Of a stretch of DNA of 64,000 bases, positions 45,012-62,742 are shown in pieces. Source of the stretch: Spirochaetota bacterium. GTDB lineage: Bacteria; Spirochaetota; UBA4802; UBA5550. The first letter of the stretch is position 1. Each line of letters starts with the position of its first letter. The stretch is taken from positions 2,208,001 through 2,272,000 of the forward strand of contig CAXXHB010000003.1 of assembly GCA_963664815.2 (NCBI GenBank), in the 5' to 3' direction. Both the position numbers and the translations under genes were made by a program. Under the pieces are notes generated by a model. It ran no database searches. It saw only the letters and a program-made list of their open reading frames with translations, and was not told the origin of the DNA.

Positions 45012-45920
45012 TTATTTAACCGGTTTAAAACTGAATCCATCACCCTCCTTCATAACATGCCCGATTCCGGGGAATATTATGTGCGCTCCGGCAATAAAGA
45101 ATCCCTCAGAGCTTGCCCTGTTCAGAATCATCTTTCTTACTTCTGCTGCTCTATTAATATCTTTATCATAAACAAGGGAGATCTCAGGATGCGGAAACTG
45201 CATCAATGTAATATGCAGAAAATCACCTGCCATCAAAAGCCTCTCCCCTTCTGATTCAAATAAATAACCGACATGCCCCGGAGTATGACCCGACATCTTA
45301 ACAGAAGTGACCCCTTCAGTGATAACTCCGCCGGGAACAAAAGATTCAACCCTTCCGGAGTATATTTTAAGAGCTTTATTGGCTGTTTCAAAATAACTTT
45401 TCATGTTTGAGGGGAGTGATTTAATGGCATTATCATCAAATGCTGCAATTTCATTTTTTGAGAAAAACAGTTTAGCCTTCGGGAATACAGCCTTCCCGTT
45501 ATTAATAAGACCACCTACATGGTCCAAATGCGCATGAGTAATAAGTATTATATCTATATCATCAGGTTTCAATCCGGCTTTCTTCATGTTTTCCAGCATT
45601 TTCCCCTTTCGTGAACCCTCGGTCCCCAGGCCGGAGTCAATCATAATATTCTGTTTACCTGTTTTAACAACAAAGACATTAATAGAGCTCTTAAGTTCAC
45701 CTTCAGGCATATATTTTTTAATTAATGCGGGATCTCCATTTTTAACCAGATCTGATTTCATCACAGAAGATAAATCAAGAAGTGAAATGACTTCAAATTT
45801 ACCAAGCTTCATGCTGTAGTTTTCTGCAGTCTTTGAACTGCACATTGTTTCTGAAGAGAGCAGAAGAGAAACTGCCGCAACTGAAAAAATAACGGTTTTT
45901 AACGTTTTCATTAACCTCAT
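45012..45920 (-). CDS. Secreted MBL-fold hydrolase (methyl-parathion hydrolase/AHL-lactonase-like)
   Basis: Signal peptide; THAHLDHVGG, GHTPGH, AGDFLH, GAHI.FPG. Confidence 0.88.
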   Translation of the reverse strand: MRLMKTLKTVIFSVAAVSLLLSSETMCSSKTAENYSMKLGKFEVISLLDLSSVMKSDLVKNGDPALIKKYMPEGELKSSINVFVVKTGKQNIMIDSGLGTEGSRKGKMLENMKKAGLKPDDIDIILITHAHLDHVGGLINNGKAVFPKAKLFFSKNEIAAFDDNAIKSLPSNMKSYFETANKALKIYSGRVESFVPGGVITEGVTSVKMSGHTPGHVGYLFESEGERLLMAGDFLHITLMQFPHPEISLVYDKDINRAAEVRKMILNRASSEGFFIAGAHIIFPGIGHVMKEGDGFSFKPVK

Positions 45921-47180: not shown

Positions 47181-48209
47181 TCACCGGGTGACAACAATAC
47201 GGAAACCAAGGCCATATCCGGAATCCGTGGGGCTGCTGTTGGTTCTGGAGGGTAAAAGAATATCTTTTTCTTCACCCAGGAAAGGGCCGCCGCGTTTGGA
47301 GCGATAAGTCCCATATGCCGGACCTGTCGGATTAATTGTCGGACTTTCAGAATAATATTTTTCACTGTACCAGTCCATACACCACTCATTGACATTTCCA
47401 ATCATATCGTATAAACCGAAAGCATTCGGTTTCTTCTCTCCGACAGGATGTGTTTTACGTTCAGAATTTGCAAGGTACCAGCAGTAATCACCGTTCAATT
47501 CATCTCCCCAGTAGAATTTTGTAGTTGTACCGGCACGGCAGGCATATTCCCATTCTGCCTCGTATGGCAATCTTACCTTCACATTATACTTTTCGCCGAA
47601 TTTTTTACAGAACTCCATTGCATTGTTCCAGGTTACCTTTTCAACGGGGAGATTATCACCTTTGGAATTACTCGGGTTTGTTCCCATAATCTCCTGATAC
47701 TGCTTCTGGGTAATCTCATATTTATCAATCCAGAAACCATCCACTGTAACCTGATGAACAGGTTTTTCATCAGGATTGCCGGTATCCGAACCCATCATAA
47801 ATGTTCCACCCTTGATATATACCATCTCTACATTTCCGATCTTCTCAACCGCTCCCAGTTTAGCGGTTAAACTTTTATTCTTGTCAGGTTTGACATCTGT
47901 GTTTACATCATCTTTGCTGAATCTGGAAACCGTCATTCCCTTATTCAGACTGGCCGGCTTACCCTTCCCTTTTATCCTGCATTTTGCAACTGTCTGCATT
48001 GGAAATGTCACCTCCAGTTCCAACTTGCCGTTTTCAGTTTCAACCTGAAGCCGGTCGCCAATTTTTATATCCGTTCCGGGCTTTACATTTACTATAACTT
48101 CTTTGCCGGCAGGGTTTATACTGCCTATTTCACCAATTTTGTTCCCTGCTGCAGCTGATATTCCAGTCAGCAGTAACACCATGAATACATACAAAAAAAC
48201 TCTTCTCAT
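47181..48209 (-). CDS. FGE-sulfatase (SUMF1/C-type lectin fold) domain secreted protein
   Basis: GGAG RBS before ATG 48209; signal peptide; GGTFMMGS, EKPVHQV, RLPYEAEWEYACRAG, NAFGLYDMIGNVNEWC, GFR. Confidence 0.9.
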   Translation of the reverse strand: MRRVFLYVFMVLLLTGISAAAGNKIGEIGSINPAGKEVIVNVKPGTDIKIGDRLQVETENGKLELEVTFPMQTVAKCRIKGKGKPASLNKGMTVSRFSKDDVNTDVKPDKNKSLTAKLGAVEKIGNVEMVYIKGGTFMMGSDTGNPDEKPVHQVTVDGFWIDKYEITQKQYQEIMGTNPSNSKGDNLPVEKVTWNNAMEFCKKFGEKYNVKVRLPYEAEWEYACRAGTTTKFYWGDELNGDYCWYLANSERKTHPVGEKKPNAFGLYDMIGNVNEWCMDWYSEKYYSESPTINPTGPAYGTYRSKRGGPFLGEEKDILLPSRTNSSPTDSGYGLGFRIVVTR

Positions 48210-48611
48210 AGAAAGTAACTCCATAAATAATAAAAATTTATAATAAAAACTCCTAAACTTTTTATAATATAAATATTCTATTTTCAACACTACCAAAGGT
48301 GACGTTTAAGAATTAATCGTTCATTATAAACTAAAAAACATCTCAGGTAATTAATGCTGAATGAATTTATAATTACAAGGCACCATGATTTTCTGTTTGT
48401 CAATAATGATTTTTCTTTCAGCCCCACTTTGCATGCGAATCAATTGTTTTGATATATTACTTATTGATTTGACAACATTATAACCGGAATAATTTCTTCA
48501 ACGACACCGGCAATGCCGCTGATAACCGACGGAATGATAAAAGCAGTTACATTATATTTTTTATTTGACGCTGAGGATTAACTTCATATTATTATATCAG
48601 AGAGGATAATT

Positions 48612-48911
48612 ATGAAAAAAACAGCATTAATACTCATCAGTCTTGCAATGATTCTTCAGGTCATTCAGTGTTCTTCAACAACGTCATCTACTAAACCGAA
48701 AGCAGCACCGGCAGATCCGGTTGTCGAAGCATGTAAAAAGGACTGTACTGCCGCATATGGACAGTGTATTCAGAAAGCCGGCAAAAATGAATCTAAAAAA
48801 ACAGCCTGCACCAATACCATGGTTAACTGTTCTGCAAAGTGCGATACAAAAGCAAAAGGCTATAAAAAACCGGAACCAGCCGGCAAGTACCATAAATCAC
48901 CCGAAATATAA
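48612..48911 (+). CDS. Small Cys-rich lipoprotein
   Basis: GAGGA RBS; lipobox-like VIQC; C-x3-C-x6-C...C-x6-C-x3-C helical hairpin pattern. Confidence 0.7.
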   Translation: MKKTALILISLAMILQVIQCSSTTSSTKPKAAPADPVVEACKKDCTAAYGQCIQKAGKNESKKTACTNTMVNCSAKCDTKAKGYKKPEPAGKYHKSPEI

Positions 48912-49127
48912 CATTGTTTTTCACAGCATATTGCTTCACCGCCAGTCTGCGGCGAAGCAGTTTTTTCTGACCAAAGTTTTTAAAACCACAAAGAGTCTTA
49001 AAAAACATTCCGGACAATAAAACCGCATTTATGATCATTTTATCATTGACAACAGCGTGTTGAAAAAAGGTAATTTTCATAAATTCTTTAATAATCAACA
49101 TGGCCTGATTTAATGGAGGATTATGTA

Positions 49128-49718
49128 ATGTTAAAAAATACATTTATAATAATCTGTCTTGTCATACTCCTCTCATCCGCAGCAAATGCCGATACCGGTA
49201 TCAGTGTCGAGGCATTTTACAAAAACATCACTTTAATCGATGCAAAGAATCAGAATGGAGGGGGCGGCACCATTCTGATTGACATGAACAGCCAGACCAA
49301 AGCTGCATTCAGCGGATCATACACTGCATATAAAGAAACCAGTAATATTGCAAGAAAAGACTTTGATGTCAGTTATTCACACGCGACATACTTTATAGGT
49401 ATTTTATATGAACCCCCTGTCGAATTTCTTGAAAGACACAATTTTGTATGGAGAAATTCCCTGTATGGCGGATACAGCAGAACTGAAGTGAAAATTGAGG
49501 GGTTGAAGGATGCCTCTGCTGAAGATTCAGGTTTTGCCATGGCGCTTAACACAGGAATAGGTTATAACCTTACACAGCATATCCAGCTTTTCGCAGATGC
49601 AGGGTGGCAGCATTCCTTTTATCAGGGTGACCTGAATGATTCCAATATCAGCGGCTTCCAGGTATTTGCCGGGGTAAGATATTCATTATCCGGTTCAAAA
49701 TCACTGGAGGATTATTGA
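49128..49718 (+). CDS. Outer-membrane beta-barrel protein (OmpA/porin-like)
   Basis: GGAGG RBS; signal peptide ending ANA; amphipathic strands GIGYNLT..IQLFADAGW and FAGVRY. Confidence 0.7.
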   Translation: MLKNTFIIICLVILLSSAANADTGISVEAFYKNITLIDAKNQNGGGGTILIDMNSQTKAAFSGSYTAYKETSNIARKDFDVSYSHATYFIGILYEPPVEFLERHNFVWRNSLYGGYSRTEVKIEGLKDASAEDSGFAMALNTGIGYNLTQHIQLFADAGWQHSFYQGDLNDSNISGFQVFAGVRYSLSGSKSLEDY

Positions 49719-49720
49719 TT

Positions 49721-50815
49721 ATGAACAGAATATTAAATAAAACCGTAATAATCATCTCTTTATCCGCTGCAGTTTTTATTATATTGTCATGTGACGGTGC
49801 CTTTGATGCTGCAAAGCAGAAACTGCTGGCTGACGGCCTTATATTATCGGGAGCAGTTAACACCTTCGCGGGATCAGGCACTGCCGGATTCACTGACGGC
49901 ACAGGAACATCTGCAACTTTTAATCAGCCCTGGGGTATAACTTCAGACGGAACAAATTTATATGTGACGGAATTTTTAAATCACAGTATCAGGAAGGTAG
50001 TAATTGCTACCGGAGCGGTAACAACCCTTGCCGGAACAGGATCTTCCGGAAGTACAGACGGCACAGGAACTGCCGCCAGCTTTAATTATCCTGAAGGTAT
50101 TACTACAGATGGATTGAATTTGTATGTATGTGACAGCGCCAATAACAAACTAAGGAAGGTAGTAATCTCAACCGGCGAGGTTACCACATTTGCAGGAACA
50201 GGCACCGCGGCGAGTGTTGACGGCACAGGAACATCCGCAAGTCTTAACAATCCAAGTGCATTAACAACTGACGGAACAAACCTCTATGTTGTAGATTGGG
50301 GGAGCAGTAATATCAGGAAGATAGTGATAACAACCGCTGTGGTAACAACAATTGCCGGGGCAGGATCTGCCGGAAGCTCTGACGGCACAGGAACTGCTGC
50401 CAGTTTTAGTTCCCCCGAGGGAATAGTTACAGATGGAGTAAATCTCTATGTGAGCGATAGTTACAATTATAAAATAAGAAAAATAGTAATATCTACCGGT
50501 GTGGTAACAACATTTGCCGGGACAGGTTCTGCGGCGAGCGTTGACGGCACGGGGACATCCGCAAGCTTTAATCGTCCAGGCCAGATAATTGAAGATGGCG
50601 TTAATCTGTATGTAACCGACAGATACGGATATAAAATAAGAAAGATAGTTATATCCACCGGTGTTGTGACAACTGTTGCAGGATCAGGTACTGCGGCCAG
50701 CGTTGACGGCACAGGAGCATCCGCAAGCTTTAATCTGCCAACCGGTATAGCATCAGACGGTATATTTCTTTATGTTGCTGACACTAATGGCTATAAAATC
50801 AGGGTAATACAGTAA
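49721..50815 (+). CDS. NHL-repeat beta-propeller lipoprotein
   Basis: Lipobox ILSC; six ~54-aa repeats 'AGxGxAGSxDGTGTxASFNxPxGITxDGxNLYVxDxxNxKIRKIVIxTGxVTT'. Confidence 0.88.
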   Translation: MNRILNKTVIIISLSAAVFIILSCDGAFDAAKQKLLADGLILSGAVNTFAGSGTAGFTDGTGTSATFNQPWGITSDGTNLYVTEFLNHSIRKVVIATGAVTTLAGTGSSGSTDGTGTAASFNYPEGITTDGLNLYVCDSANNKLRKVVISTGEVTTFAGTGTAASVDGTGTSASLNNPSALTTDGTNLYVVDWGSSNIRKIVITTAVVTTIAGAGSAGSSDGTGTAASFSSPEGIVTDGVNLYVSDSYNYKIRKIVISTGVVTTFAGTGSAASVDGTGTSASFNRPGQIIEDGVNLYVTDRYGYKIRKIVISTGVVTTVAGSGTAASVDGTGASASFNLPTGIASDGIFLYVADTNGYKIRVIQ

Positions 50816-50994
50816 TCCGCATTTATATGTTATGCTTTAACCTTGAAGTATTTAATAAAAGCCTATAATCACCGGGAAAAATCATATAATCCATAAGCTA
50901 CTCCTCACCAGGTAACCACATATGTTCCACCATGGGGCCTTATGACGCGATATTGGCAGTTATAAGTTTTTCGTTAAATAAAATAAAATAAAAT

Positions 50995-51093
50995 AAAAAA
51001 CCCGGCATTAAACCGGGCAACAGAGGAGGAGCTTTACAGGAAGATTTTTTTATTCTTTACCATTTATATTGCATTACATTCATGCTCTTTATA
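50995..51093 (-). ncRNA. Candidate small RNA with anti-SD-like CUCCUCCUC and intrinsic terminator
   Basis: Minus-strand promoter TTGACA(51127-51122)-16-TATTAT with TG extension; terminator cccgg/ccggg + T-run at 51017-50995; no real ORF. Confidence 0.45.
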
Positions 51094-51593
51094 CGTGACA
51101 TAATATCAAACACTTTTAAAATGTCAATTATATAACTATACTCCATAAAAAAAATTACTTTTTTCATAAAAAATTACCGTTAATTCTATAAATAGAAATT
51201 GTTTTTAAAGAATCCCGGGTGGAACTTTTTATTAATTTAATGGGCCGTAATATATCAGCGACAGCATAACAATGAAATTTTTTACATAGTCTGTATATAG
51301 CCCGTTATTTATAAACTCATTTTATTATTTACTGATGCAGTTTGTACCGGATTTCATTATAATTTTTTAACGAAAAGAGTTTGACTTTATACAGGATTGT
51401 AATATTTAATTTTTTGTACCTAAGTTTATATATTTGATTTACCGGTTAATCAGTCCAAGATGTTTGGTAATATTCAGTACGAATAACACTGAGAAGTACT
51501 TATGGAATTAATACATTTTTTTACATAATCCTGACTCATTCTTTATAAGCATTTACTATCTTGAAAATCTGTAAATAAAACAGGAGTACAAGA

Positions 51594-54500
51594 ATGGCAG
51601 CTATTAATATTTTTAAGAAAGGAATATGGGTTTTAATATCGTTTATTGCCGCTGTTTCTCTTTCGGTAATTGCAGGATTCCTGAACCCCGGAGAAAAGGT
51701 TAATGCAATCTGGCTTATTGTTGCTACTGTATGTATATTCGTAATTACTTACAGATTTTACGCTGCATTTCTTGCCTCAAAGGTTCTGGTTTTTGATGAA
51801 ACAAAAAAAATGCCCTCTGAAACAGTGAATGACGGTGTAGATTACTACCCCATGAATAAATGGGTTCTGTTCGGGCATCATTTCGCAGCTATTGCCGGGG
51901 CCGGACCTCTTATAGGGCCGACGCTTGCCGCACAGTTCGGTTATCTTCCCGGGTTTCTCTGGATACTTGTAGGGGCGACTCTTGCAGGAGCCGTCCATGA
52001 CATGGTCATTCTGGCGGCATCAGCACGGCATAACGGACAATCACTTGCCCAGATTGTAAGAGATGAGATAGGAACCTTAAGCGGATTTGTTCTTGCCCTG
52101 ATCATTATCTTCAATGTTGTAGTTGCTGTCGCCGGAGCCGCACTCTCTGTCGTTAATTCACTCAACATGAACTCCTGGGGAACCTTTACACTCCTTATTA
52201 CTTTCCCGATTGCAATCTTTATGGGAATCTATATGCACTTCCTCAGAAAGGGTAAAATCATGGAGGTCAGCATTATTGGCGCATTGCTGCTTCTTGTTGC
52301 AGTATTCCTCGGAAGCCGCATGCCGGGATCTTCATTAGCTCCATTTTTTACAATTGATAAAAACAGACTTATTATTTACCTTGGTATCCTCTGCTTCATA
52401 TCCTCTGCCCTGCCCATATGGCTTCTTCTGGTACCCAGGGATTATATTTCAGCATACCTTAAAGTCGGAACATTTCTTCTGCTGGCTGTTGCCATAGCCA
52501 TAAACATGCCGGTTCTGGAGATGCCGAAAACGACACAGTATATAGCAGGCGGGGGACCAATCGTCCCGGGAACACTCTTCCCTTTTCTTTTTATTACGAT
52601 AGCCTGCGGGGCAATTTCAGGATTTCACGGACTTATATCCTCCGGCACTACGCCGAAAATGATCAAATCAGAAAAGGATATACCCCTTATAGGTTTCGGT
52701 TCAATGCTCGTTGAGGGGTTTGTTGCCGTCATAGCCCTTATTGCAGCATCCATACTCATACCTGGCGATTATTTTGCCATGAACACAAAACTCTCACCCG
52801 AGATACTCTCTTCAATGGGATTTCCCATATCTAAAATACAGGAACTATCACAGACAATAGGACTGCAGCTTCAGGGAAGACCGGGTGGAGCAGTCTCCAT
52901 AGCTGCCGGAATGTCGGTACTTCTGTCATCTCTTTTCGGTGGAAAAGCGTCACTGCCCTACTGGTATAATTATTCACTGATGTTCATCGCGCTTTTCATT
53001 CTTACACTTGTAGATGCCGGAACCAGGGTCGGCCGTTTTATGCTTCAGGAGATAGGAGGGACAATCTATAAGCCCTTTTCAAATCACCAGAATGAGTTTA
53101 ATATTATCATTACAAGTCTTATCATAGTTCTTATGTGGTGTTACCTGCTTTTTACAGGAAACATCTCCACCATATGGCCGATGTTCGGCATCGCCAACCA
53201 GATCCTTGCGGCTACCGCCCTTGGTGTAGGCACCACGCTTTTAATCAAGTCTGACAAGGTTAAATATATCTGGATAACTGTACTGCCGATGTTGTTCATG
53301 CTTATAACTTCATACATCGCGGCATGGCAGCTTGTATTTATATTTTTTGAAAATGCCTCAAAATCCCCGAATCCTTCAGATGCCTTTCATCTGAGGATGA
53401 ATGCATCGCTTATTATTTTTATAGCAGTTCTCGGGATTATCGTTATTGCAGATCTCTTTTACAAATGGCACGGTTATTTTAAAACCGGTACAGATATAAA
53501 CCTTAAGGATCTTTTTATCCGGCTTAAAAACAATATTATCAGCAGAATCCCGAAAAGGACCAGCATCCTTGCAAAGCTGCTGTCATTTCTTATTGCCACA
53601 CTTATCATCAGTTTCGCAGTAATTTACTTTATTTTTAACGTTTCATTTTCAGGATACAGCGAATATGTAATGAAGAAATCTGAAGCACTTCTTATGGAAA
53701 AATACAGCTACATGCTGCAGAACAACACCGAAATGGCAGTGTCTCTTGTGTCTTCAATATATAAACAGAAGAATATATCCGAAGCGCAGAAACTCAAACT
53801 CTCACAGGAATTGGTCAGACAGCTCCGCTATGGCAACGACGGTTATTACTATGCTTATGAAAACAGTACCGGAAAAAACCTTATACATGGTTTGAATAAA
53901 AATCTTGAAGGGAAAAACCTCTGGAATATGCAGGACCCTGCCGGTAAACAGTATATTATAAGGGAGCTTGACGATGTGGCAAAAAACAATAAAGTTTTTC
54001 TTGAATTTTTCTGGAGCAAGCCCGGCGTGGAAGGTATTTACCCGAAACTTGGAACTGCTATGAACGTTCCCGGAACCAATATGTGGCTTGGTACCGGCGC
54101 TTATATTGACGATATAAACAAAAGTAAAACCGAGTTAAGGGCAGCCATTAATAAAATAACCGCCGGGACAAGGCTCAACTTTCTTCTGGGATTTCTTATT
54201 ATTACACCAATCGCGATAATGATTATTATATTTCTTTCAAGAAATATCACTAATCCCATCAAGCACCTTATTACCTCCACCGAAGCGGTATCATCGGGGA
54301 ATTATAACGTAAAAATTGATGCCAGGACTCATGACGAGATAGGCAAACTTGCTGTTACCTTTAACAGCATGACTGTTACCCTGAAGGATCTCACCGAAAA
54401 CCTTGAGCTTAAAGTGGAGGAAAGGACCTCTGAGCTTCAGGAAACCATGAACAAGCTCAACGAAATGAATACTATACTCGGTTCACTTTCAGATAAGCTG

Positions 54501-55691
54501 TCAAAATATATTCCTCCTCAGCTACGGGAGATGATTTTCAACGGAAAGCAGGAGGCAAAGATCGCCTCTTCAAGAAAGAAACTTACAGTATTTTTTTCAG
54601 ATATCAAGAATTTCACACAGACAACAGAGAGAATGGAAACCGAATCACTTACGGATCTTCTCAACAGTTACCTCAACGAAATGTCACAGATTGCAATAAA
54701 GCATGGCGCTACAATAGATAAATTCGTCGGTGATGCCATTCTTGTATTTTTCGGCGATCCTGAAACAAGGGGTGAGCAGAAAGATGCTGTAGCCGCCGTT
54801 GATATGGCGCTGGAGATGAAGTCACGGCTGAGATATTTACAGACCCAGTGGTATGAGAAAGGTATAGTGGAACCATTCCATGTCCGCATGGGTATAAATA
54901 CAGGATACTGTACTGTGGGTAATTTCGGCAGCGATGCAAGAATGTCATATACCATTATCGGTTCTCAGGTAAACCTGGCCAGCAGGCTTGAAAGCTCATC
55001 AGAACCGGACAACGTGCTTATTTCTCACGAAACATATTCACTTGTTTCACATAAATACTACTGCCTTGAGAAAGAGGGTATCATGGTTAAGGGGATAGAC
55101 CACCCCATTAAAACGTACCAGGTTGTTGATTCACATGAGAATCTTAAAAAACAAAACAGGCTGATCGAAGAACGTACAACAGGATTCAATATCAGCCTTG
55201 ACCTTGAAAACATGAGAACAGAAAACAGGGGAAAGGCACGCAGGGTACTAACAGAAGCTCTTCAGCTGCTTGGCGAAGCGGAAGGGGAACCGCTTAATAT
55301 GATTGTTTCCAGTGTAATTAAAACAGTAAAAAAAGAGACCATATCATTAAACAGCGGATTTTCAGTGGATACCGGTGATTTGATATTTCCGGGTGACGCA
55401 TCCACCCTTTCCGCAATACTTCATGATCTGGTTTATAATGCAGTTCTTCTTTCGGGAGATGAAGGCAATATAACAATAAGCGCCGAAGCCGAAAATGGTT
55501 CAACAGTGATACGGATAACAGATTCAGGTCAATGGCTTGACAGGGACGATATTAAAAGCCTTTTTGCCGATGGAGATACACCAGGGAGTTTATCAGGCAT
55601 TAAAGCAGGAATCAGAAAACTTAACGGACACATATCCTCAAAACGCAACCATGAAGGGGGTAATATATTTATTCTGACAATACCCGGCTGA
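51594..55691 (+). CDS. cstA: Carbon starvation protein A (CstA/BtsT-family transporter) fused to Cache-HAMP-class III adenylate cyclase and a degenerate HATPase domain
   Basis: CstA motifs VLFGHHFAAIAGAGPLIGP, PRDY, FITIACGAISGFH, SSGTTPKM, DAGTRVGRF, IWPMFGIANQ. Then TM-Cache-TM, HAMP (DEIGKLAVTFNSM) and cyclase motifs FFSDIKNFT, DKFVGDA, RMGINTG, YTIIGSQVNLASRLE. One uninterrupted ORF. Confidence 0.9.
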   Translation: MAAINIFKKGIWVLISFIAAVSLSVIAGFLNPGEKVNAIWLIVATVCIFVITYRFYAAFLASKVLVFDETKKMPSETVNDGVDYYPMNKWVLFGHHFAAIAGAGPLIGPTLAAQFGYLPGFLWILVGATLAGAVHDMVILAASARHNGQSLAQIVRDEIGTLSGFVLALIIIFNVVVAVAGAALSVVNSLNMNSWGTFTLLITFPIAIFMGIYMHFLRKGKIMEVSIIGALLLLVAVFLGSRMPGSSLAPFFTIDKNRLIIYLGILCFISSALPIWLLLVPRDYISAYLKVGTFLLLAVAIAINMPVLEMPKTTQYIAGGGPIVPGTLFPFLFITIACGAISGFHGLISSGTTPKMIKSEKDIPLIGFGSMLVEGFVAVIALIAASILIPGDYFAMNTKLSPEILSSMGFPISKIQELSQTIGLQLQGRPGGAVSIAAGMSVLLSSLFGGKASLPYWYNYSLMFIALFILTLVDAGTRVGRFMLQEIGGTIYKPFSNHQNEFNIIITSLIIVLMWCYLLFTGNISTIWPMFGIANQILAATALGVGTTLLIKSDKVKYIWITVLPMLFMLITSYIAAWQLVFIFFENASKSPNPSDAFHLRMNASLIIFIAVLGIIVIADLFYKWHGYFKTGTDINLKDLFIRLKNNIISRIPKRTSILAKLLSFLIATLIISFAVIYFIFNVSFSGYSEYVMKKSEALLMEKYSYMLQNNTEMAVSLVSSIYKQKNISEAQKLKLSQELVRQLRYGNDGYYYAYENSTGKNLIHGLNKNLEGKNLWNMQDPAGKQYIIRELDDVAKNNKVFLEFFWSKPGVEGIYPKLGTAMNVPGTNMWLGTGAYIDDINKSKTELRAAINKITAGTRLNFLLGFLIITPIAIMIIIFLSRNITNPIKHLITSTEAVSSGNYNVKIDARTHDEIGKLAVTFNSMTVTLKDLTENLELKVEERTSELQETMNKLNEMNTILGSLSDKLSKYIPPQLREMIFNGKQEAKIASSRKKLTVFFSDIKNFTQTTERMETESLTDLLNSYLNEMSQIAIKHGATIDKFVGDAILVFFGDPETRGEQKDAVAAVDMALEMKSRLRYLQTQWYEKGIVEPFHVRMGINTGYCTVGNFGSDARMSYTIIGSQVNLASRLESSSEPDNVLISHETYSLVSHKYYCLEKEGIMVKGIDHPIKTYQVVDSHENLKKQNRLIEERTTGFNISLDLENMRTENRGKARRVLTEALQLLGEAEGEPLNMIVSSVIKTVKKETISLNSGFSVDTGDLIFPGDASTLSAILHDLVYNAVLLSGDEGNITISAEAENGSTVIRITDSGQWLDRDDIKSLFADGDTPGSLSGIKAGIRKLNGHISSKRNHEGGNIFILTIPG

Positions 55692-55806
55692 CGTTTCTGT
55701 CAGCCTCATTGTCATCACGGGTTACTTAAAATATTCCGCCATCATCAGACAGAATATGTTTTTTATTTAAAACAAACCAAAATATTCCGGTATTTATACA
55801 GCCGGC

Positions 55807-56160
55807 CTATTTTGGTTTTGTTGTTTTTTCCCCGGACAAATCCTTCGGCAATTCTTCAGGCAGCTCTTCCATAATCAAAGTTCCATTTCCCTGGATATCA
55901 ACAGCCCTTTTTGTATCCATATCGAGAATTGTTATGTCAAGAATTCCGGATTCATCATCATGCGTGCGGGAAATGGAACATTTAATATTCTTTGAAAAAA
56001 GAAGCTCCCCGTTATTATTATAATACTTTACAGATCTTAAAATTCCTTTATCCTTCTCTAAATCAGATCTATACTCCAGGATATCTTCCTTCTTACTGCA
56101 GGATGATATAATTAATACTGCCGGCATTAACAATAATAAAATATTCCTTTTTATATTCAT
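55807..56160 (-). CDS. Hypothetical lipoprotein
   Basis: Signal peptide with lipobox ISSC. Confidence 0.65.
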   Translation of the reverse strand: MNIKRNILLLLMPAVLIISSCSKKEDILEYRSDLEKDKGILRSVKYYNNNGELLFSKNIKCSISRTHDDESGILDITILDMDTKRAVDIQGNGTLIMEELPEELPKDLSGEKTTKPK

Positions 56161-56377
56161 CTACTTTCCCTTCCCGGTGTATTTTTTTAAACGGAAATAA
56201 AGCATCAGAACTATTTTTTTATTAAAACATGCTGTCAAGTAATTAAATTGCCTTTTTTAATCCGGTATTTGCGATAAAACCGGCATATGTTTACCATGGT
56301 CAATAGCTTCAGATGCTGCTTTTAAATACCTCCATCATATTTAACTAATCTATCTTAATATTTTCATTTAAAAAACA

Positions 56378-58615
56378 TCATGCCCTTTCTACACTACATG
56401 GAACAAAACGGTGAATCGGAGTTCCCACCATATCCCTGTTGGTACTCTTTGTCAGCCGGTTTACGTTAATACCGTACACAACATCACCATATAAAAGCCC
56501 AAATCCGTGTGGAATAAGAACTGTACCTTTCCGCACCTGTCCGGATACCTCCAGTTCACCGGTATCGCTTCCGGCCTCAGTTGTAACCCTGACATTCTCT
56601 CCATCAGACAATCCAAGATGTTCCGCATCAATGGGGCTTATTGCCACAGTGCATGCCCGTTTCCCTCTGTTCCACTCCTGATCACGCATAAGACTGTTCG
56701 CATTATAATCCATATGCCGCCCGGCATTGAGAATAAAAGGAAAACCTTCAGGCATTTTAAGTTCTATCTCTTCAGTTGAAGGATTAAGCAGCTTTAGCTC
56801 CTCCTCAAGTTCAGGAATATAAAGTTCAATCTTACCGGATTCGGTTTTTATATTTTTAAAATTCTTTTCCGTGTCAACCCTTCCTATCATAACCCCCTGA
56901 GGATTATCAAGCAATGTCTGGAATATCCTCTCACCGATATCAGGTCCTTTGGCAAATCCTGCCCTTTCTGCATTTTCCCTTAGCTCTTTCGGAGCAGATG
57001 CCAGTATCGCCCAGAAAGCTGAAAGATTTGCGCTCCCCATTGCCCTCCCCAGCGTCTTTGCAAGGATAAACGGCCTCTGTTTTGCAGCTTCAGGGTTATC
57101 CTTTATCCATCCCATAAGCTTCATTATAAAGGCAAGACGGTTACCTTTGGCTGCCTCATATAGTTCCGCCGGGATTTCAGGTATCAGCCCAAGTTTATCC
57201 GCAATCAGTGTATGTATCTCAGCCGCTTCAAGACACTGCTCCGGCGGTTCAACAACAGGTTTTCTTATGTGATAATATATCTCCGGATAGTTATATGGGT
57301 AAAAGGTGCTTTCCCATGATTCGAAATATGTCTTGCATGGCAGTACATAATGGGCTAAACGCGCTGTTTCACTCATTACAATCTCATTTACTACAAGAAG
57401 ATCAAGCCTGCTGAAAGCCTCCTCGTATGCCGTTGTATCGGGAAACGCTCTCAGGGGATTGCAGGCGCTTACAATCATGGCCCTTAACCTCTCAGGGTTG
57501 TCGCTGAGAATTTCCTCAGGCACAACAGAGGGTGGATAAGACCCCGCCGCCGCAGGGGGCATATTTGTTGCCGTTGTTTTCCATATTTCAGGTTTACGTT
57601 CATCCGCGTGAAAACCCAGCGGCATAACAAACCCCGGTATAATGTTGCCGCCCGGCACACAGAACCTGCCGCACAATGACCCGAGAATATGCAGCAGATA
57701 TGAGTTAAGCACGCTTTTGCGCCCCATGTAGATTCCGAGGTCCGGATGAAATGACCACTGTCTTGTTGACATCAGCCTGCAGAGATTATGCACCTCTTCA
57801 TATTCAAGCTCACATACTTTCAGTGCATTCTTTACATCAAAATTATTAAAAAACGGTAAAATCTTTTCCCAGCCTGTTACATGCTCATTTATATAATCGC
57901 GTTTTTCCCATCCTTCTCTGATTATAATTGAAATCATTGCCTTTATCAGCAGGGCGTCAGTCCCCGGACGTACTGCAAGATGTATATCGGCTATTGCAGC
58001 CGTTTCATTTTTTCTCGGATCAATAACGACAAGCAGCCGGTTTTTATCATTGCTGAACTCCCTGAGGGTTACCCTTGCCCGCGGTATCTGGTGACTCTGC
58101 ATTCCATTCCATCCCCAGGCAACAAGCATATCCGTATTATGTTCATCCGGCCCGGTAATATTATACTGCTTCCCGAATACGCGGCCCTGTACCCACCATT
58201 GCCCGCTGAATTCCTGCCCACCCGGCGAATAGTAATACTGCGAACCAAGACTTCTGAGAAGCTGCAGACCAAATGCAGTCTCGCCATGTCCTGCCTGTGC
58301 TGCCCCACCCATGTAGGCAAGGCTTCTCGGTCCGTAGGACTTTAAAACAGACTTTATCCTTTCAGCAATATCTCCTGCAGCCTCATCCCATGTTACAGGT
58401 ATAAAATCATTCCCCTTTCTTTTGAGAGGTTCTGTTATTCTATCCTTAGGATACTGGTGAGTCATCACATTCATCCCCTTCCTGCATATATAACCGAGGC
58501 TTCTCGGATTATCCTTATCCCCTCTTACCTTTACCATTTTGCCGTTTTCAACAAGCGCCTCAAGACCGCAGTTCTGAGTACAGAGTACACAGCATGTTTT
58601 CAGCCAGTTTTCCAT
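56378..58615 (-). CDS. Molybdopterin-dependent oxidoreductase (DMSO reductase family, 4Fe-4S)
   Basis: GGAGG RBS before ATG 58615; CxxCxxxC...C cluster (CVLCTQNC...ICRKG), VIDPR, RPGTD, C-terminal MopB_CT. Confidence 0.9.
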   Translation of the reverse strand: MENWLKTCCVLCTQNCGLEALVENGKMVKVRGDKDNPRSLGYICRKGMNVMTHQYPKDRITEPLKRKGNDFIPVTWDEAAGDIAERIKSVLKSYGPRSLAYMGGAAQAGHGETAFGLQLLRSLGSQYYYSPGGQEFSGQWWVQGRVFGKQYNITGPDEHNTDMLVAWGWNGMQSHQIPRARVTLREFSNDKNRLLVVIDPRKNETAAIADIHLAVRPGTDALLIKAMISIIIREGWEKRDYINEHVTGWEKILPFFNNFDVKNALKVCELEYEEVHNLCRLMSTRQWSFHPDLGIYMGRKSVLNSYLLHILGSLCGRFCVPGGNIIPGFVMPLGFHADERKPEIWKTTATNMPPAAAGSYPPSVVPEEILSDNPERLRAMIVSACNPLRAFPDTTAYEEAFSRLDLLVVNEIVMSETARLAHYVLPCKTYFESWESTFYPYNYPEIYYHIRKPVVEPPEQCLEAAEIHTLIADKLGLIPEIPAELYEAAKGNRLAFIMKLMGWIKDNPEAAKQRPFILAKTLGRAMGSANLSAFWAILASAPKELRENAERAGFAKGPDIGERIFQTLLDNPQGVMIGRVDTEKNFKNIKTESGKIELYIPELEEELKLLNPSTEEIELKMPEGFPFILNAGRHMDYNANSLMRDQEWNRGKRACTVAISPIDAEHLGLSDGENVRVTTEAGSDTGELEVSGQVRKGTVLIPHGFGLLYGDVVYGINVNRLTKSTNRDMVGTPIHRFVPCSVERA

Positions 58616-58754
58616 TATATTTTCCTCCGGGTTATTATCAAATGCATCTTTATACAATTATAAATACCTGAATGGTAAAATCTCACCAGGTATTCCTTAT
58701 ATATTAATTAACTCTTCTTTTATTTACCATAGAATAAGAATATTTTTCATCCGG

Positions 58755-58774
58755 GACATACCATCCGGTATGTC
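58755..58774. promoter_or_regulatory. Palindromic TetR operator upstream of the molybdoenzyme
   Basis: GACATACC-atcc-GGTATGTC; same core as the palindrome at 59385-59416. Confidence 0.7.
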
Positions 58775-58788
58775 GGCAGGCATAAAAA

Positions 58789-59382
58789 TTATTTCACCTT
58801 TATCCCTTCAACAAGTGTTAAAACAAGTTCAACCGCATGATCTAAAAATCTCTTTTCATCCCTTACCTTCGACAGTGCAAGGCCCCCTTCGATCAGTGAA
58901 AAAAGATTCATTGAAAGTCCCTCTGCATCGACAGAGGGACTTATTTCATTATCTGATTTACCATTTTCTATTATGGTTTTCAGAGTATTCTGCCAGAAGT
59001 CGATAGATCTGTTGACACGGTTTTTAATCAGCACATTCCCGTCATCCGAATCTATAGCCGCATTCATCAGAGGGCATCCACCTATTTTTCTCATTGAATC
59101 ATAGTTGTTTCTGAATGTTTCTGCAAAAACCGAAAGTTTATCACAGGAACCTGTTTTTCTGTTTATAGCTGAAAAAACAAACTTTGTCACCATGTTAAGG
59201 TTGTATTCAAGCGCAGCTAAAGCGAGTTCATCCTTGTTCTCAAAATAGTGATATATCGCCCCTTTTGTAAGACCTGTATATTCGAGCACATCAGCAAGAG
59301 ATGTTCCTTCATATCCGTGTTTGTTAAAAACCGGAGCTGCCGTTTCTATTATAAAATCCCGAGTATGTTCCGACTTTTTCAT
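58789..59382 (-). CDS. TetR/AcrR family transcriptional regulator
   Basis: FNKHGYEGTSLADV...GLTKGAIYHYFENKDEL HTH; GGCPL; probable start ATG at 59382. Confidence 0.93.
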   Translation of the reverse strand: MKKSEHTRDFIIETAAPVFNKHGYEGTSLADVLEYTGLTKGAIYHYFENKDELALAALEYNLNMVTKFVFSAINRKTGSCDKLSVFAETFRNNYDSMRKIGGCPLMNAAIDSDDGNVLIKNRVNRSIDFWQNTLKTIIENGKSDNEISPSVDAEGLSMNLFSLIEGGLALSKVRDEKRFLDHAVELVLTLVEGIKVK

Positions 59383-59384
59383 AC

Positions 59385-59417
59385 TGACATTACATACCAA
59401 TCGGTATGTAATGTCAA
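59385..59417 (-). promoter_or_regulatory. TetR autoregulatory operator overlapping a leaderless promoter
   Basis: Perfect 14-bp inverted repeat TGACATTACATACC-aatc-GGTATGTAATGTCA; minus strand reads TTGACA-17-TGTAAT-6-ATG. Confidence 0.75.
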
Positions 59418-59632
59418 GCAGATAATATCTTAAATGCATAAAACTGCCGCTTATTATCTCATATAATCTTTCCGGTTTTTCAGAATATCTGTATACATAC
59501 ATTGATAAAAATTTTAATTTTATCTCTTTTTACAGCTCTCTTCAACAGAAAAATGATTGTATCTCACCGGGGAGTTCAGCTAATTAACACCCTATACTAT
59601 AATATTTAAATAATACAGGAGAATACACTTTA

Positions 59633-60019
59633 ATGAAAAGAATTCTACTCTCAGGTATAACACTGTTTTTCTGTTTAACCGCATTATCTTTTTCCGCTGA
59701 TAACATTAAGACAGTTAATTATAATGATCTGCCAAACGGAGCAAAAGAGGTTATTACAAAGATAAAAGCGGGTTCCACAGAGTGGGCATTTGTCAAAAAC
59801 GACGGGGTTCGTTTCGGGAACCGGGAGAAACATCTTCCTGCTGACCATAATGTTTCATATAAAGAGTACACCGTCTGCACAGACAGAATGAACAAAGAGT
59901 TAAAAAAGGGGAAACGGCCCAACCGTGGTCCAAACCGTATAGTACATGATGTCAGCAACGATATCTACTACTACACTGATGATCACTACAGAACGTTCAG
60001 GAGAGTTGTATTTAAATAA
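59633..60019 (+). CDS. Secreted barnase/RNase Sa-family guanyl-specific ribonuclease
   Basis: Signal peptide; FGNREKHLP, YKEYTV, NRIV, YYTDDHY.TF catalytic E/R/H pattern. Confidence 0.9.
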   Translation: MKRILLSGITLFFCLTALSFSADNIKTVNYNDLPNGAKEVITKIKAGSTEWAFVKNDGVRFGNREKHLPADHNVSYKEYTVCTDRMNKELKKGKRPNRGPNRIVHDVSNDIYYYTDDHYRTFRRVVFK

Positions 60020-60435: not shown

Positions 60436-62742
60436 TCAGCCATGTTGACCATGCATATGTGTTAAAAACAGTTTACAGATCCCGGGATCAAACTGAATAC
60501 CTGCATTGCTCTCTATCTCCTTTAATGCATTTTCTGCAGATACAGCCCTGCGGTATGGCCTTTCAGTGGTCATTGCCGTATATGCGTCAGCAATGGCAAG
60601 AATTCTTGACTGAAGCGGGATATCAAGGGCTTTAATTCCCCTTGGGTAACCCCTGCCATCCCATCTTTCATGATGTGCCAGCACGTAATCGGCTAATTTC
60701 GCATACTCATTAACTGAAGATAATATTCTGTAACCATGCTCACTGTGACGCTTAACTTCATCAATGGCATACCCGCTTAAAGGCTTAGTACTGTTTAAAA
60801 TTTCTTCAGCTATGGCGATATTACCGATATCATGCATCATCCCCAGTGTCTTCAGTTCGAGTATCTCCTCCCCCCTTAAATTCATTTCTTTACCGATAAC
60901 AGCGCACAGTTCGCTTACTTTTTTAGCGTGAAGCTCTTCTCCGGGATTTTTACTGTATAATGTATTCTTTATAGTTTCTATAGTCTGGTGTTTTATAATA
61001 TTACTTTCAGAGAGTTTCTCTTTGTACATCAAATCTTCGGCCTGTTTGTAAATATCGGTTATATCCTGTTCATCGGATTCTTTGGCCGCAAGGCCGAAAG
61101 ATACCGAGACAGGCAGAATGCCGGCCTTTTCACCATGCATAGATATTTTAATCCGCCGGACAATAGTTTCAGCTGTAATTCTGTCAGCACCGGGCAGAAT
61201 AATTACAAATTCATCGCCGCCTGTTCTGGCAATGATATCATCCGAACGGCACTCTTTTTTTAAGACACCTGCCGCTTTCCGAAGAAGATTATCCCCGGCC
61301 AGATGTCCGAAAACATCATTTGTAAGCTTCAGTCCATTGACATCACCTACCACCAGCGTGATGGGTAGATTTCTTTTTGTATCAAGTCTCCGAAGCTCCT
61401 CCTCAAAAAACCTGTGGTTATACAGGCCTGTCAGGTGGTCATGGAATCCCAGATGGGCTATCTCCAGTGCGCTTTTAAGTTCCCTGTTTACTCTTTCCAG
61501 GTTAGTGTTTAAAATATTTATTCTGTCAGCAAGCGCAATAGAGAGAAGCACGGCTTCTATAACCGCGGCTATCTGAAAATTGTAGAAGGTAAAGTTATTA
61601 TAAGGAAGAACACTTTTAAATGTCAGTGAAAAGACTATTGTTCCGGCTAAAAAAACGAATGATGCCCATATATAAAACCTGGCATTCCTGTTTCCCCGTC
61701 TGAAAGCCGTTATTCCAGTAATCATTAATACAACAGGAACAACAAGTCCCATGGTTGTAAAATAATTAATAATCTTACTGTACTCAAACAGGAAAACGCC
61801 TGCAGATAATCCGAGTGAGACAATAATTAAAATATTAAGAATGGTGTCAATTACCGGCATAATCTTCCGTGTTGAGAGGAAAGTCTTTGCGAATAACATT
61901 GCAAATGCAGAGCTGACACCCAGAAAAAAGAGCGTTAAATATGTTGACACAACAGGATTCTGCCTGAAAAAGAACTCGGTCGTAAGCCGGTTCACTGCTG
62001 AGAAATACAATGTAATGGTTAAAAGATACAGCAGATAATAAAAACGCGACTTTTCCCTGAGGAATATACACAGAAAGAGGTTGTAAAGGAATAAACCTGT
62101 CATAACGCCATAGAACATCCCGAAGAGAATAAGCTGATAAAACAGTTTACTGTCCAGTTCATCTTTCTGAACAACTTTAAGCGGTATAAAATATGGTGAT
62201 TTTGATTCGACACGCAGATAAAATGTCGATGGTTCACGATCCAGCGCAGGGAGACTGAAAACCACATTTTTGTATACCAGTTCATTCAGTCCAAGAACCT
62301 TCAATGTCCCGCCTGACTGCCTGATCCATCCGTCTTTTCCGTATTTATCTTTTTTTACCGGGGTATATAAATCGGCGTAATAGACATATTGAGTACCCAT
62401 GTCAAGAAAGCGGGCAGTCCTGTCGGCTCCGCTTTCAATACCGGCAGACTGAAGAGTAAATCTTAACCAGAAGACCGATCTGCTGAGTCCAAGATTTATA
62501 TTTTCTTTTTTATGAGTGTAAAATTCACCATTATAGCTCCCGGAGCTGACCTCTGCAATACCAAGCTTTCCCTCCTTATCCTCAAGAATCTCAACATGCC
62601 TGCCAAGAGAAATACCAGGTGTTCCATTATCTATATTTACAGCATCCAGAGCCAGTGCGTTTTTCAAGGGGAATGTATATACAATCAGGTGGAAGGCAAT
62701 AATAACCTGTAATAATGAACGTGTATGGATAACTCTATTCAT
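60436..62742 (-). CDS. 7TM-DISM sensor fused to GGDEF and HD-GYP domains
   Basis: 7TMR-DISM extracellular region (FWLRF) and 7 TM helices; RSDD..ARTGGDEF; MHDIG, HHERWDGRGYP, QFDP. Confidence 0.9.
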   Translation of the reverse strand: MNRVIHTRSLLQVIIAFHLIVYTFPLKNALALDAVNIDNGTPGISLGRHVEILEDKEGKLGIAEVSSGSYNGEFYTHKKENINLGLSRSVFWLRFTLQSAGIESGADRTARFLDMGTQYVYYADLYTPVKKDKYGKDGWIRQSGGTLKVLGLNELVYKNVVFSLPALDREPSTFYLRVESKSPYFIPLKVVQKDELDSKLFYQLILFGMFYGVMTGLFLYNLFLCIFLREKSRFYYLLYLLTITLYFSAVNRLTTEFFFRQNPVVSTYLTLFFLGVSSAFAMLFAKTFLSTRKIMPVIDTILNILIIVSLGLSAGVFLFEYSKIINYFTTMGLVVPVVLMITGITAFRRGNRNARFYIWASFVFLAGTIVFSLTFKSVLPYNNFTFYNFQIAAVIEAVLLSIALADRINILNTNLERVNRELKSALEIAHLGFHDHLTGLYNHRFFEEELRRLDTKRNLPITLVVGDVNGLKLTNDVFGHLAGDNLLRKAAGVLKKECRSDDIIARTGGDEFVIILPGADRITAETIVRRIKISMHGEKAGILPVSVSFGLAAKESDEQDITDIYKQAEDLMYKEKLSESNIIKHQTIETIKNTLYSKNPGEELHAKKVSELCAVIGKEMNLRGEEILELKTLGMMHDIGNIAIAEEILNSTKPLSGYAIDEVKRHSEHGYRILSSVNEYAKLADYVLAHHERWDGRGYPRGIKALDIPLQSRILAIADAYTAMTTERPYRRAVSAENALKEIESNAGIQFDPGICKLFLTHMHGQHG

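Follow-up and report, generated by a model that had tools for sequence, protein, structure and literature searches.

A complete CstA-family carrier and a putatively carboxylate-sensing adenylate cyclase are encoded as a single polypeptide in the genome of a Spirochaetota bacterium (GenBank assembly GCA_963664815.2). The gene is located in a stretch of 64,000 nucleotides of contig CAXXHB010000003.1 (positions 2,208,001 to 2,272,000 of the forward strand), referred to here as the window, in which it occupies positions 51594..55691 of the plus strand, the stop included; all parts of the gene described below are on this strand. The single open frame of 1365 codons, coding for the protein P0001 of 1365 residues, starts with ATG and has no internal stops, in agreement with a sequence-only reading of the window that had noticed the absence of a stop at the junction, and a Shine-Dalgarno-like AGGAG (51582..51586) is found 7 nucleotides upstream of the ATG. 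The CstA-cyclase fusion is real, conserved and selected, as is seen from further fused copies, from the pattern of substitutions between the two copies in this genome and from contigs that bridge the junction.

The sequence-only reading had described the order of the parts as CstA, a Cache domain between two transmembrane (TM) helices, HAMP, a coil and a class III cyclase, and each of these elements is indeed present when Pfam matches and hydrophobicity are considered. The carrier part covers residues 1-635 (51594..53498), with the Pfam CstA match at residues 37-574 (51702-53315); its end had been placed at about residue 625, which is nearly right, the alignment to a stand-alone CstA of 650 residues extending to about residue 635. 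The fusion junction is a K/R-rich linker (residues 626-657, 53469..53564) with a short helix at residues 637-651, and it is predicted to be cytoplasmic. The sensor module then begins with its first membrane helix, TM18 (residues 658-683, 53565..53642, from hydrophobicity and the model), which is followed by the sCache_2 sensor domain, predicted by Pfam matching at residues 701-845 (53694..54128) and expected to be periplasmic, and by TM19 (residues 860-884, 54171..54245); both helices are strongly hydrophobic segments, one on either side of the Cache domain. The HAMP domain (residues 880-931, 54231..54386; 50 bits in the Pfam scan of P0001) is joined by a helical connector (residues 932-992, 54387..54569), defined by its position between Pfam domains and 74-82% identical among the fused proteins, to the predicted catalytic domain of a class III adenylate cyclase of the Lys/Thr type (residues 993-1177, 54570..55124; Pfam and alignments). 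At the C-terminal side there is a post-cyclase segment (residues 1178-1266, 55125..55391), consisting of a beta-hairpin and two helices without a phospho-acceptor His motif, and an orphan histidine-kinase-type ATPase (CA) domain (residues 1267-1364, 55392..55685) with degenerate G1 and G2 boxes.

Copies, contigs and origin of the fused gene

A second full-length fused copy is present in the same genome (G000:C3:482234-486328). It is stop-free and 80% identical, it has the identical five Pfam domains, and its gene neighbours are unrelated to those of the window copy. When the two copies are compared part by part, the identity is 89% for CstA, 67% for the linker, 76% for Cache, 80% for HAMP and 88% for the cyclase, and it is 53% for the post-cyclase segment and 60% for the ATPase tail; the CstA part is the most conserved one, with a proportion of nonsynonymous differences (pN) of 0.059. 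Overall, pN is 0.11 and the proportion of synonymous differences (pS) is 0.72, the synonymous sites being saturated, and wherever the synonymous divergence (dS) of a part is computable, the linker and the tail included, pN is by far the smaller of the two. The saturation of the synonymous sites, together with the low pN, shows that the duplication is old and that both copies have been kept by selection. The linker by itself is also under purifying selection, with a pN of 0.17 versus a pS of 0.66.

Another assembly contains a third distinct fused protein, P0002 (1367 residues, 79% identical), and a fourth fused gene is found in the Leptospirales metagenome-assembled genome (MAG) L017, in which residues 497-1259 are read in a single frame across the junction and the tail has a 100-N gap. 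The fusion across the junction in the second, third and fourth copies points to one fused gene rather than two. A junction-spanning match is found in two of the 122 genomes of the order, being G000 (twice) and G088.

An artefactual fusion was also checked for directly across the junction, where contigs of the runs X1 and X3, from two studies, span 52800-54300 in one piece with 0 differences, although X1 or X3 may itself be the source of this assembly. In the runs X4 and X5, the contigs are interrupted at two places that flank the junction, 53355/53367 and 53546-53549, and the latter place is a HinfI site, GAATC (53545..53549). The letters that X5 has before 53546 are located 26 kb off on the same chromosome, ending in GATC, those of X4 after 53549 are found 263 kb off, immediately after another GAATC, and those of X5 after 53355 begin with GATC and are located about 950 kb off on the same chromosome. 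The two other loose ends of the five, both from X4 (at 53367 and 53546), have no match in this genome; these are possibly DNA of another organism in the sample. A split form of the gene, or an insertion, was considered as the cause of these breaks and rejected in view of the HinfI site and of the three ends that lie elsewhere on the chromosome: because these three ends are at GATC or GAATC sites, they are chimeras formed by ligation at restriction sites. X4 and X5 appear to be proximity-ligation libraries, and the breaks of their contigs are taken as no argument against the fusion. A protein of 348 residues, P0127, has 100% identity with residues 693-913 along its first 221 positions, after which it diverges. 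It is derived from a Logan contig of 1332 nucleotides, the same size as the chimeric X4 contig, and it is probably also a product of a ligation chimera rather than a genuine variant.

The origin of the fusion is best seen from its sensor part. When residues 641-1365 are scored against 1.84 billion cluster representatives, the best match besides the own cluster is P0125, a stand-alone sCache_2-HAMP-cyclase-HATPase_c protein of 737 residues that is 57% identical over residues 654-1363, and the next match is P0126, which has 578 residues and is tail-less. Among the 150 matches listed, Pfam finds CstA in none of the 27 that have at least 800 residues, P0001 itself being set aside. In a tree of the sensor part (10 rows), the four fused proteins form one clade (100/100) with P0125 as its sister (96/96), and the tail-less sensors are placed outside this group; the two outgroups of this tree are long-branched, and the branching order inside the fused clade is unsettled. 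The stand-alone sensors begin at query residue 651-654 or thereabouts, and the nearest stand-alone CstA (G035, 650 residues, 52% identical) can be aligned to about residue 635, including a YKW-G motif after the last helix. The methionine at the old start of the sensor (near residue 654) is missing in the fused proteins. The single fused clade, the sister position of P0125, the abutting boundaries of the stand-alone proteins and the loss of the sensor methionine indicate a single, ancient event in which the end of an entire cstA was connected to the start of the gene of a sensor cyclase already carrying the tail. The locus of P0125 was looked for in 38 candidate genome-contig stretches, where it is not found, and in 99 metagenome-contig stretches, one of which has a match that is only 29% identical.

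The fusion is rare. A search with the full-length query of a collection of 5.8 billion clusters gives one other fused cluster among the 120 matches listed; the cluster of the paralogue is represented by a fragment of 148 residues and is therefore unlisted, and other fused proteins may be hidden likewise. A search with the CstA part finds six proteins longer than 1120 residues, being two cyclase fusions, one fusion with peptidase S9/DPP-IV and three with gamma-glutamyltranspeptidase, and the CstA-cyclase proteins are the only CstA-plus-signalling proteins found in the two very large protein collections. No description of a CstA-cyclase fusion was found in the literature, and the combination of a CstA carrier, a cyclase output and a separate sensor between the two is new.

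Predicted properties of the parts

Carriers of the CstA family occur widely and are little understood; whether their substrates are peptides or pyruvate is a matter of dispute. The match of the carrier part with the Pfam profile (PF02554; E 3e-197; 657 bits versus a cut-off of 27; profile positions 1-558 of 560) assigns it to the CstA family (TC 2.A.114). It keeps 143-145 of the 188 columns that are invariant in 116 comparison proteins, a test that is biased by the fact that these proteins are mostly from one actinobacterial group, and at the majority of the replaced positions the nearest stand-alone CstA (G035) departs from the invariant residue as well. For residues 1-700 (51594-53693), the AF2 model, built from 51 sequences, has a pLDDT of 87.5 and a pTM of 0.87, with 17 long helices before the linker, two of which are broken (residues 89-115 and 329-348). 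This model is closest to carriers with the LeuT/APC fold, being NKCC1 (E 2e-7) and also LeuT, SGLT and CAT, with TM-scores of 0.3-0.6, and it suggests with high model confidence that the CstA part folds as a LeuT/APC-like carrier. A sequence search of a copy of the PDB found no solved CstA structure. From its conservation, the CstA carrier is probably working, and by analogy with the characterised members its substrate would be pyruvate or peptides. The fusions of CstA to a peptidase S9/DPP-IV (P0008, 1453 residues) and to gamma-glutamyltranspeptidase (P0122-P0124, 1152 residues) are compatible with a peptide-handling role for some CstA proteins.

When the K and R residues on the two sides of the membrane are tallied, the models with the linker inside give 27:6 or 25:8, and the model with the linker outside gives 8:25. 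We infer from these counts that the linker is cytoplasmic and that the Cache domain is periplasmic. The identity of the linker among the fused proteins is 54-67%, which makes it the least conserved part besides the tail region.

The sCache_2 match (PF17200, residues 701-845) scores 109 bits, the cut-off being 25, and is located between the two membrane helices. The best solved relatives are the sensor domain of V. parahaemolyticus (2QHK/4EXO, E 5e-21 and 2e-19), followed by a protein of A. dehalogenans (4K08) and then by PscD of P. syringae (5G4Y), the E values ranging from 5e-21 to 3e-6. According to PMC5062169, the pocket of 4EXO is occupied by pyruvate, with Tyr70 bonding the keto group, and PscD binds C2/C3 carboxylates via Tyr90, His103, Tyr143 and Lys156, between Trp92 and Trp145. 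The printed alignments give Y751, Y753, Y755, H765, F805, W807 and K818 as the putative pocket residues of the query, with Y755 in the column of Tyr70 of 4EXO; of the four PscD residues that bond the carboxylate, three (Y751, H765 and K818) are conserved in the HMMER alignment, which may be shifted within the beta-strands. A small carboxylate is a reasonable guess for the ligand of this domain.

In class III cyclases, two Asp residues bind the metals, a Lys/Thr pair specifies adenine and an Asn/Arg pair stabilises the transition state. The Guanylate_cyc match (PF00211, residues 993-1177) scores 102.9 bits at a cut-off of 21.9, and CyaB of P. aeruginosa (3R5G) aligns with this domain at E 1.7e-80 across 195 residues. 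D1003, K1043, D1047, T1120, N1127 and R1131 are identical in CyaB and in the Spirulina cyclase 1WC0, and because all six catalytic residues are the same, ATP is the likely substrate and cAMP the likely product. This is also in agreement with the sequence-only reading, which had noted intact metal-binding Asp residues, the ATP-specifying Lys and Thr and an NxxxR motif; the domain is of the ATP type and looks catalytically intact. The genome has 25 cNMP_binding matches, 23 of which are above the cut-off.

The tail (residues 1267-1364) matches HATPase_c with 33-37 bits, above the cut-off of 26.4. The Asn of the N-box (N1282) is present, and DSGQW (G1) and GSLSGI (G2) take the place of the DSGKGI and GTGLGL of ZraS and ThkA; a degenerate tail of this kind, lacking the GxGLG box, had already been recognised from the letters. 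The AF2 model of the tail, built from four sequences (pLDDT 80), matches the CA domains of histidine kinases, with a TM-score of 0.79 and an rmsd of 2.3 Å for ThkA and an E value of 2.6e-11 for ZraS. A HisKA-type domain is not matched at E<=10 in either copy, and because of this result and of the degenerate G1 and G2 boxes the protein is not a histidine kinase; its tail reads as a degenerate kinase ATPase domain, for which ATP binding or docking can be guessed as the role.

Proposed working of the protein and alternative explanations

Class III cyclases and HAMP domains act as dimers. The best explanation of the fusion, held with moderate confidence, is a single protein that is both a carrier and a carboxylate-sensing cAMP cyclase, with a possible coupling of the carrier to the sensor. 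It would be one dimeric protein of the inner membrane, in which a small carboxylate (C2-C3, pyruvate-like) binds to the Cache domain and the signal runs through TM19, HAMP and the connector, altering the synthesis of cAMP; the numerous cNMP-binding proteins encoded in the genome would be the readers of this cAMP. The CstA part would still carry its substrate, and the occupancy or conformation of the carrier may bias the sensor through the 32-residue tether to TM18, such that cAMP reports the external supply plus the uptake. The label 'transceptor' for the CstA-cyclase protein is accordingly hypothetical, and it is possible that the periplasmic Cache domain alone could do the sensing.

Several observations weigh against the carrier-plus-cyclase explanation. 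The CstA part scores 559.7 bits with NCBIfam NF011590, the equivalog of the E. coli pyruvate/proton symporter CstA, and does not reach the cut-off of 1188; the substrate is therefore not transferable from E. coli. Among the residues invariant in the 116 mostly actinobacterial proteins, several are replaced, for example E465I and H459N, and the AF2 model shows 17 helices, compared with the 18 that are predicted for E. coli CstA, so that the parity of the helices is unsettled. In the Cache domain, Phe805 is at the position of Tyr143 of PscD, and Glu804 is found where 4EXO has a Tyr, one column before. The earlier proposal of a pyruvate sensor is favoured by the closeness of the domain to the pyruvate-holding 4EXO and is weakened by the keeping of only three of the four PscD residues and by the sub-equivalog score of the CstA part. 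The fused gene is absent from all seven other genomes of the same genus, and it is therefore dispensable in the lineage; no gene neighbourhood is conserved, with nothing common to the three fused loci, the stand-alone sensors of G015 and G022 and the stand-alone CstA of G035. The L017 copy has a 1-nucleotide frameshift in a T-run inside CstA, at about residue 501, which may be an assembly error or a sign of decay.

An assembly or sequencing artefact, or a decaying pseudogene, where there are truly two genes, was also considered, and the breaks of the X4 and X5 contigs on either side of the junction, together with the frameshift and the 100-N gap of L017, would fit such a view. It is very improbable, because three of the five loose ends map to distant GATC/GAATC sites as expected of ligation chimeras, the junction is bridged by X1 and X3 contigs, the frame is retained both by the diverged paralogue of this genome and by the third copy from elsewhere, and the L017 frameshift is away from the junction. 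A more serious alternative, still rather unlikely, is that the fusion achieves only co-expression or co-location: the sensor module would be self-sufficient, CstA would transport independently, possibly peptides, and the tether would carry no signal. In agreement with this, stand-alone sensors occur in five of the 122 genomes of the order, where they are not adjacent to cstA, and the module can therefore do without a carrier; the linker is weakly conserved; and the CstA-peptidase fusions show that CstA can be fused for simple metabolic convenience. Against it, the frame of the fusion has been kept in four genes through saturated synonymous divergence, the own start codon of the sensor is gone in all fused genes and the linker is under purifying selection.

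It is also conceivable that the CstA part is transport-dead and that it is now either a second sensor that binds a ligand or a scaffold for the cyclase dimer in the membrane. The replacement of some polar residues that are conserved in the family, such as E465I and H459N, is in favour of this view, and membrane modules without a transport function, such as MASE2 of CyaB, regulate other cyclases. This possibility is nevertheless judged to be improbable: no other part is as well conserved as CstA, the Pfam profile is matched from end to end, and the stand-alone CstA of G035 has replacements at most of these positions too. An extension of the preferred explanation is a cyclase transceptor with three inputs, in which the Cache domain would report the external carboxylate, CstA the uptake flux, reaching the HAMP-cyclase unit via the TM17-linker-TM18 tether, and the ATPase domain the cellular ATP. 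This extended version is considered unlikely. If it were true, the cAMP made by one protein would encode nutrient supply, uptake and energy state, and the order known from enterobacteria, where cstA is switched on by cAMP-CRP, would be reversed.

Gene surroundings and comparison with known systems

No RNA run is listed as containing the stretch. Rfam has no matches at E<=0.1 over 48000-60000, and scans for promoters and terminators are near background, with 20 seen versus 18.4 expected and 8 seen versus 4.9 expected, respectively. The fused gene and the neighbouring molybdopterin oxidoreductase gene have uncultured Leptospirales or 'Spirochaetes' MAGs as their closest named relatives, and the window probably comes from an uncultured member of the order Leptospirales. 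Further along the window, a barnase-type ribonuclease gene (PF00545, 59633-60019, plus strand) is followed, with a one-base overlap, by a gene for a barstar inhibitor (PF01337, 60019-60426, plus strand), and 60436-62742 on the minus strand encodes a 7TMR-DISMED2/7TMR-DISM sensor of 768 residues with GGDEF and an HD-GYP-type HD_5 domain, a c-di-GMP enzyme near the cAMP gene. At 45012-45920 (minus strand), 6 kb from the cyclase gene, there is a gene for a protein with the metallo-beta-lactamase fold, which matches class II cAMP phosphodiesterase weakly (E 4e-4) and below the cut-off. The paralogue at L011:6229-10329 (minus strand) is divergent from a gene (L011:10669-13548, plus strand) for a two-component protein of 959 residues, with 7TMR-DISM, HisKA, HATPase, receiver and LytTR domains in a single chain. 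In E. coli, the LytTR regulator BtsR controls btsT (PMC10653868); the LytTR protein beside the paralogue may be linked to the carrier, or its position may be a coincidence.

As 'Rosetta stone' evidence, the fusion suggests that the carrier and the sensor act on the same stimulus, and the nearest solved relative of the sensor holds pyruvate. It may tie the uptake of small organic acids directly to cell signalling, and it suggests that cAMP signalling is driven by carboxylates in uncultured Leptospirales, a group that has many cyclases and cNMP-binding proteins and, to our knowledge, almost no known signals for them. The gene also offers a single-gene system in which carrier-to-enzyme signalling could be measured by a simple cAMP read-out in E. 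coli.

The closest comparison is with P0125, which shares the sCache_2, HAMP, cyclase and HATPase_c domains in the identical order and differs in being without CstA and in having its own Met just before its first membrane helix. CyaB (3R5G) shares the metal, Lys/Thr and Asn/Arg residues of the catalytic domain. It has no Cache, HAMP, CstA or kinase-type tail, unlike the query, and its membrane module is MASE2. The domains of 2QHK/4EXO, 4K08 and PscD (5G4Y) have the domain family and the Tyr/His/Trp/Lys pocket residues in common with the query; those domains feed chemoreceptors, whereas that of the query is predicted to feed a cyclase and has a Phe at one carboxylate position of PscD. The carrier part, of about 635 residues, belongs with E. 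coli CstA (701 residues) and BtsT to the same Pfam family (TC 2.A.114) and the same type of multi-helix secondary carrier. According to PMC7730263, the two E. coli proteins, for which 18 helices are predicted, are pyruvate/H+ symporters, and it is cAMP-CRP that activates cstA there; in comparison, the cAMP link of the query would be reversed and placed within the same polypeptide.

A carrier and a signalling enzyme in a single chain are also found in CbrA, in which an SLC5-type carrier is joined to a histidine kinase (PMC13022988), and in Ks-Amt5, in which Amt is joined to a histidine kinase (PMC5764959). The modelled fold of the CstA part is LeuT/APC-like, a class that includes the SGLT (SLC5) carriers. 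The query differs from both proteins in its carrier family, in having a cyclase rather than a kinase as its predicted output and in the periplasmic sensor placed in between. The short list of bacterial carrier-sensor fusions, with CbrA and Ks-Amt5 as its members, would in this way gain a new carrier family and a second-messenger output.

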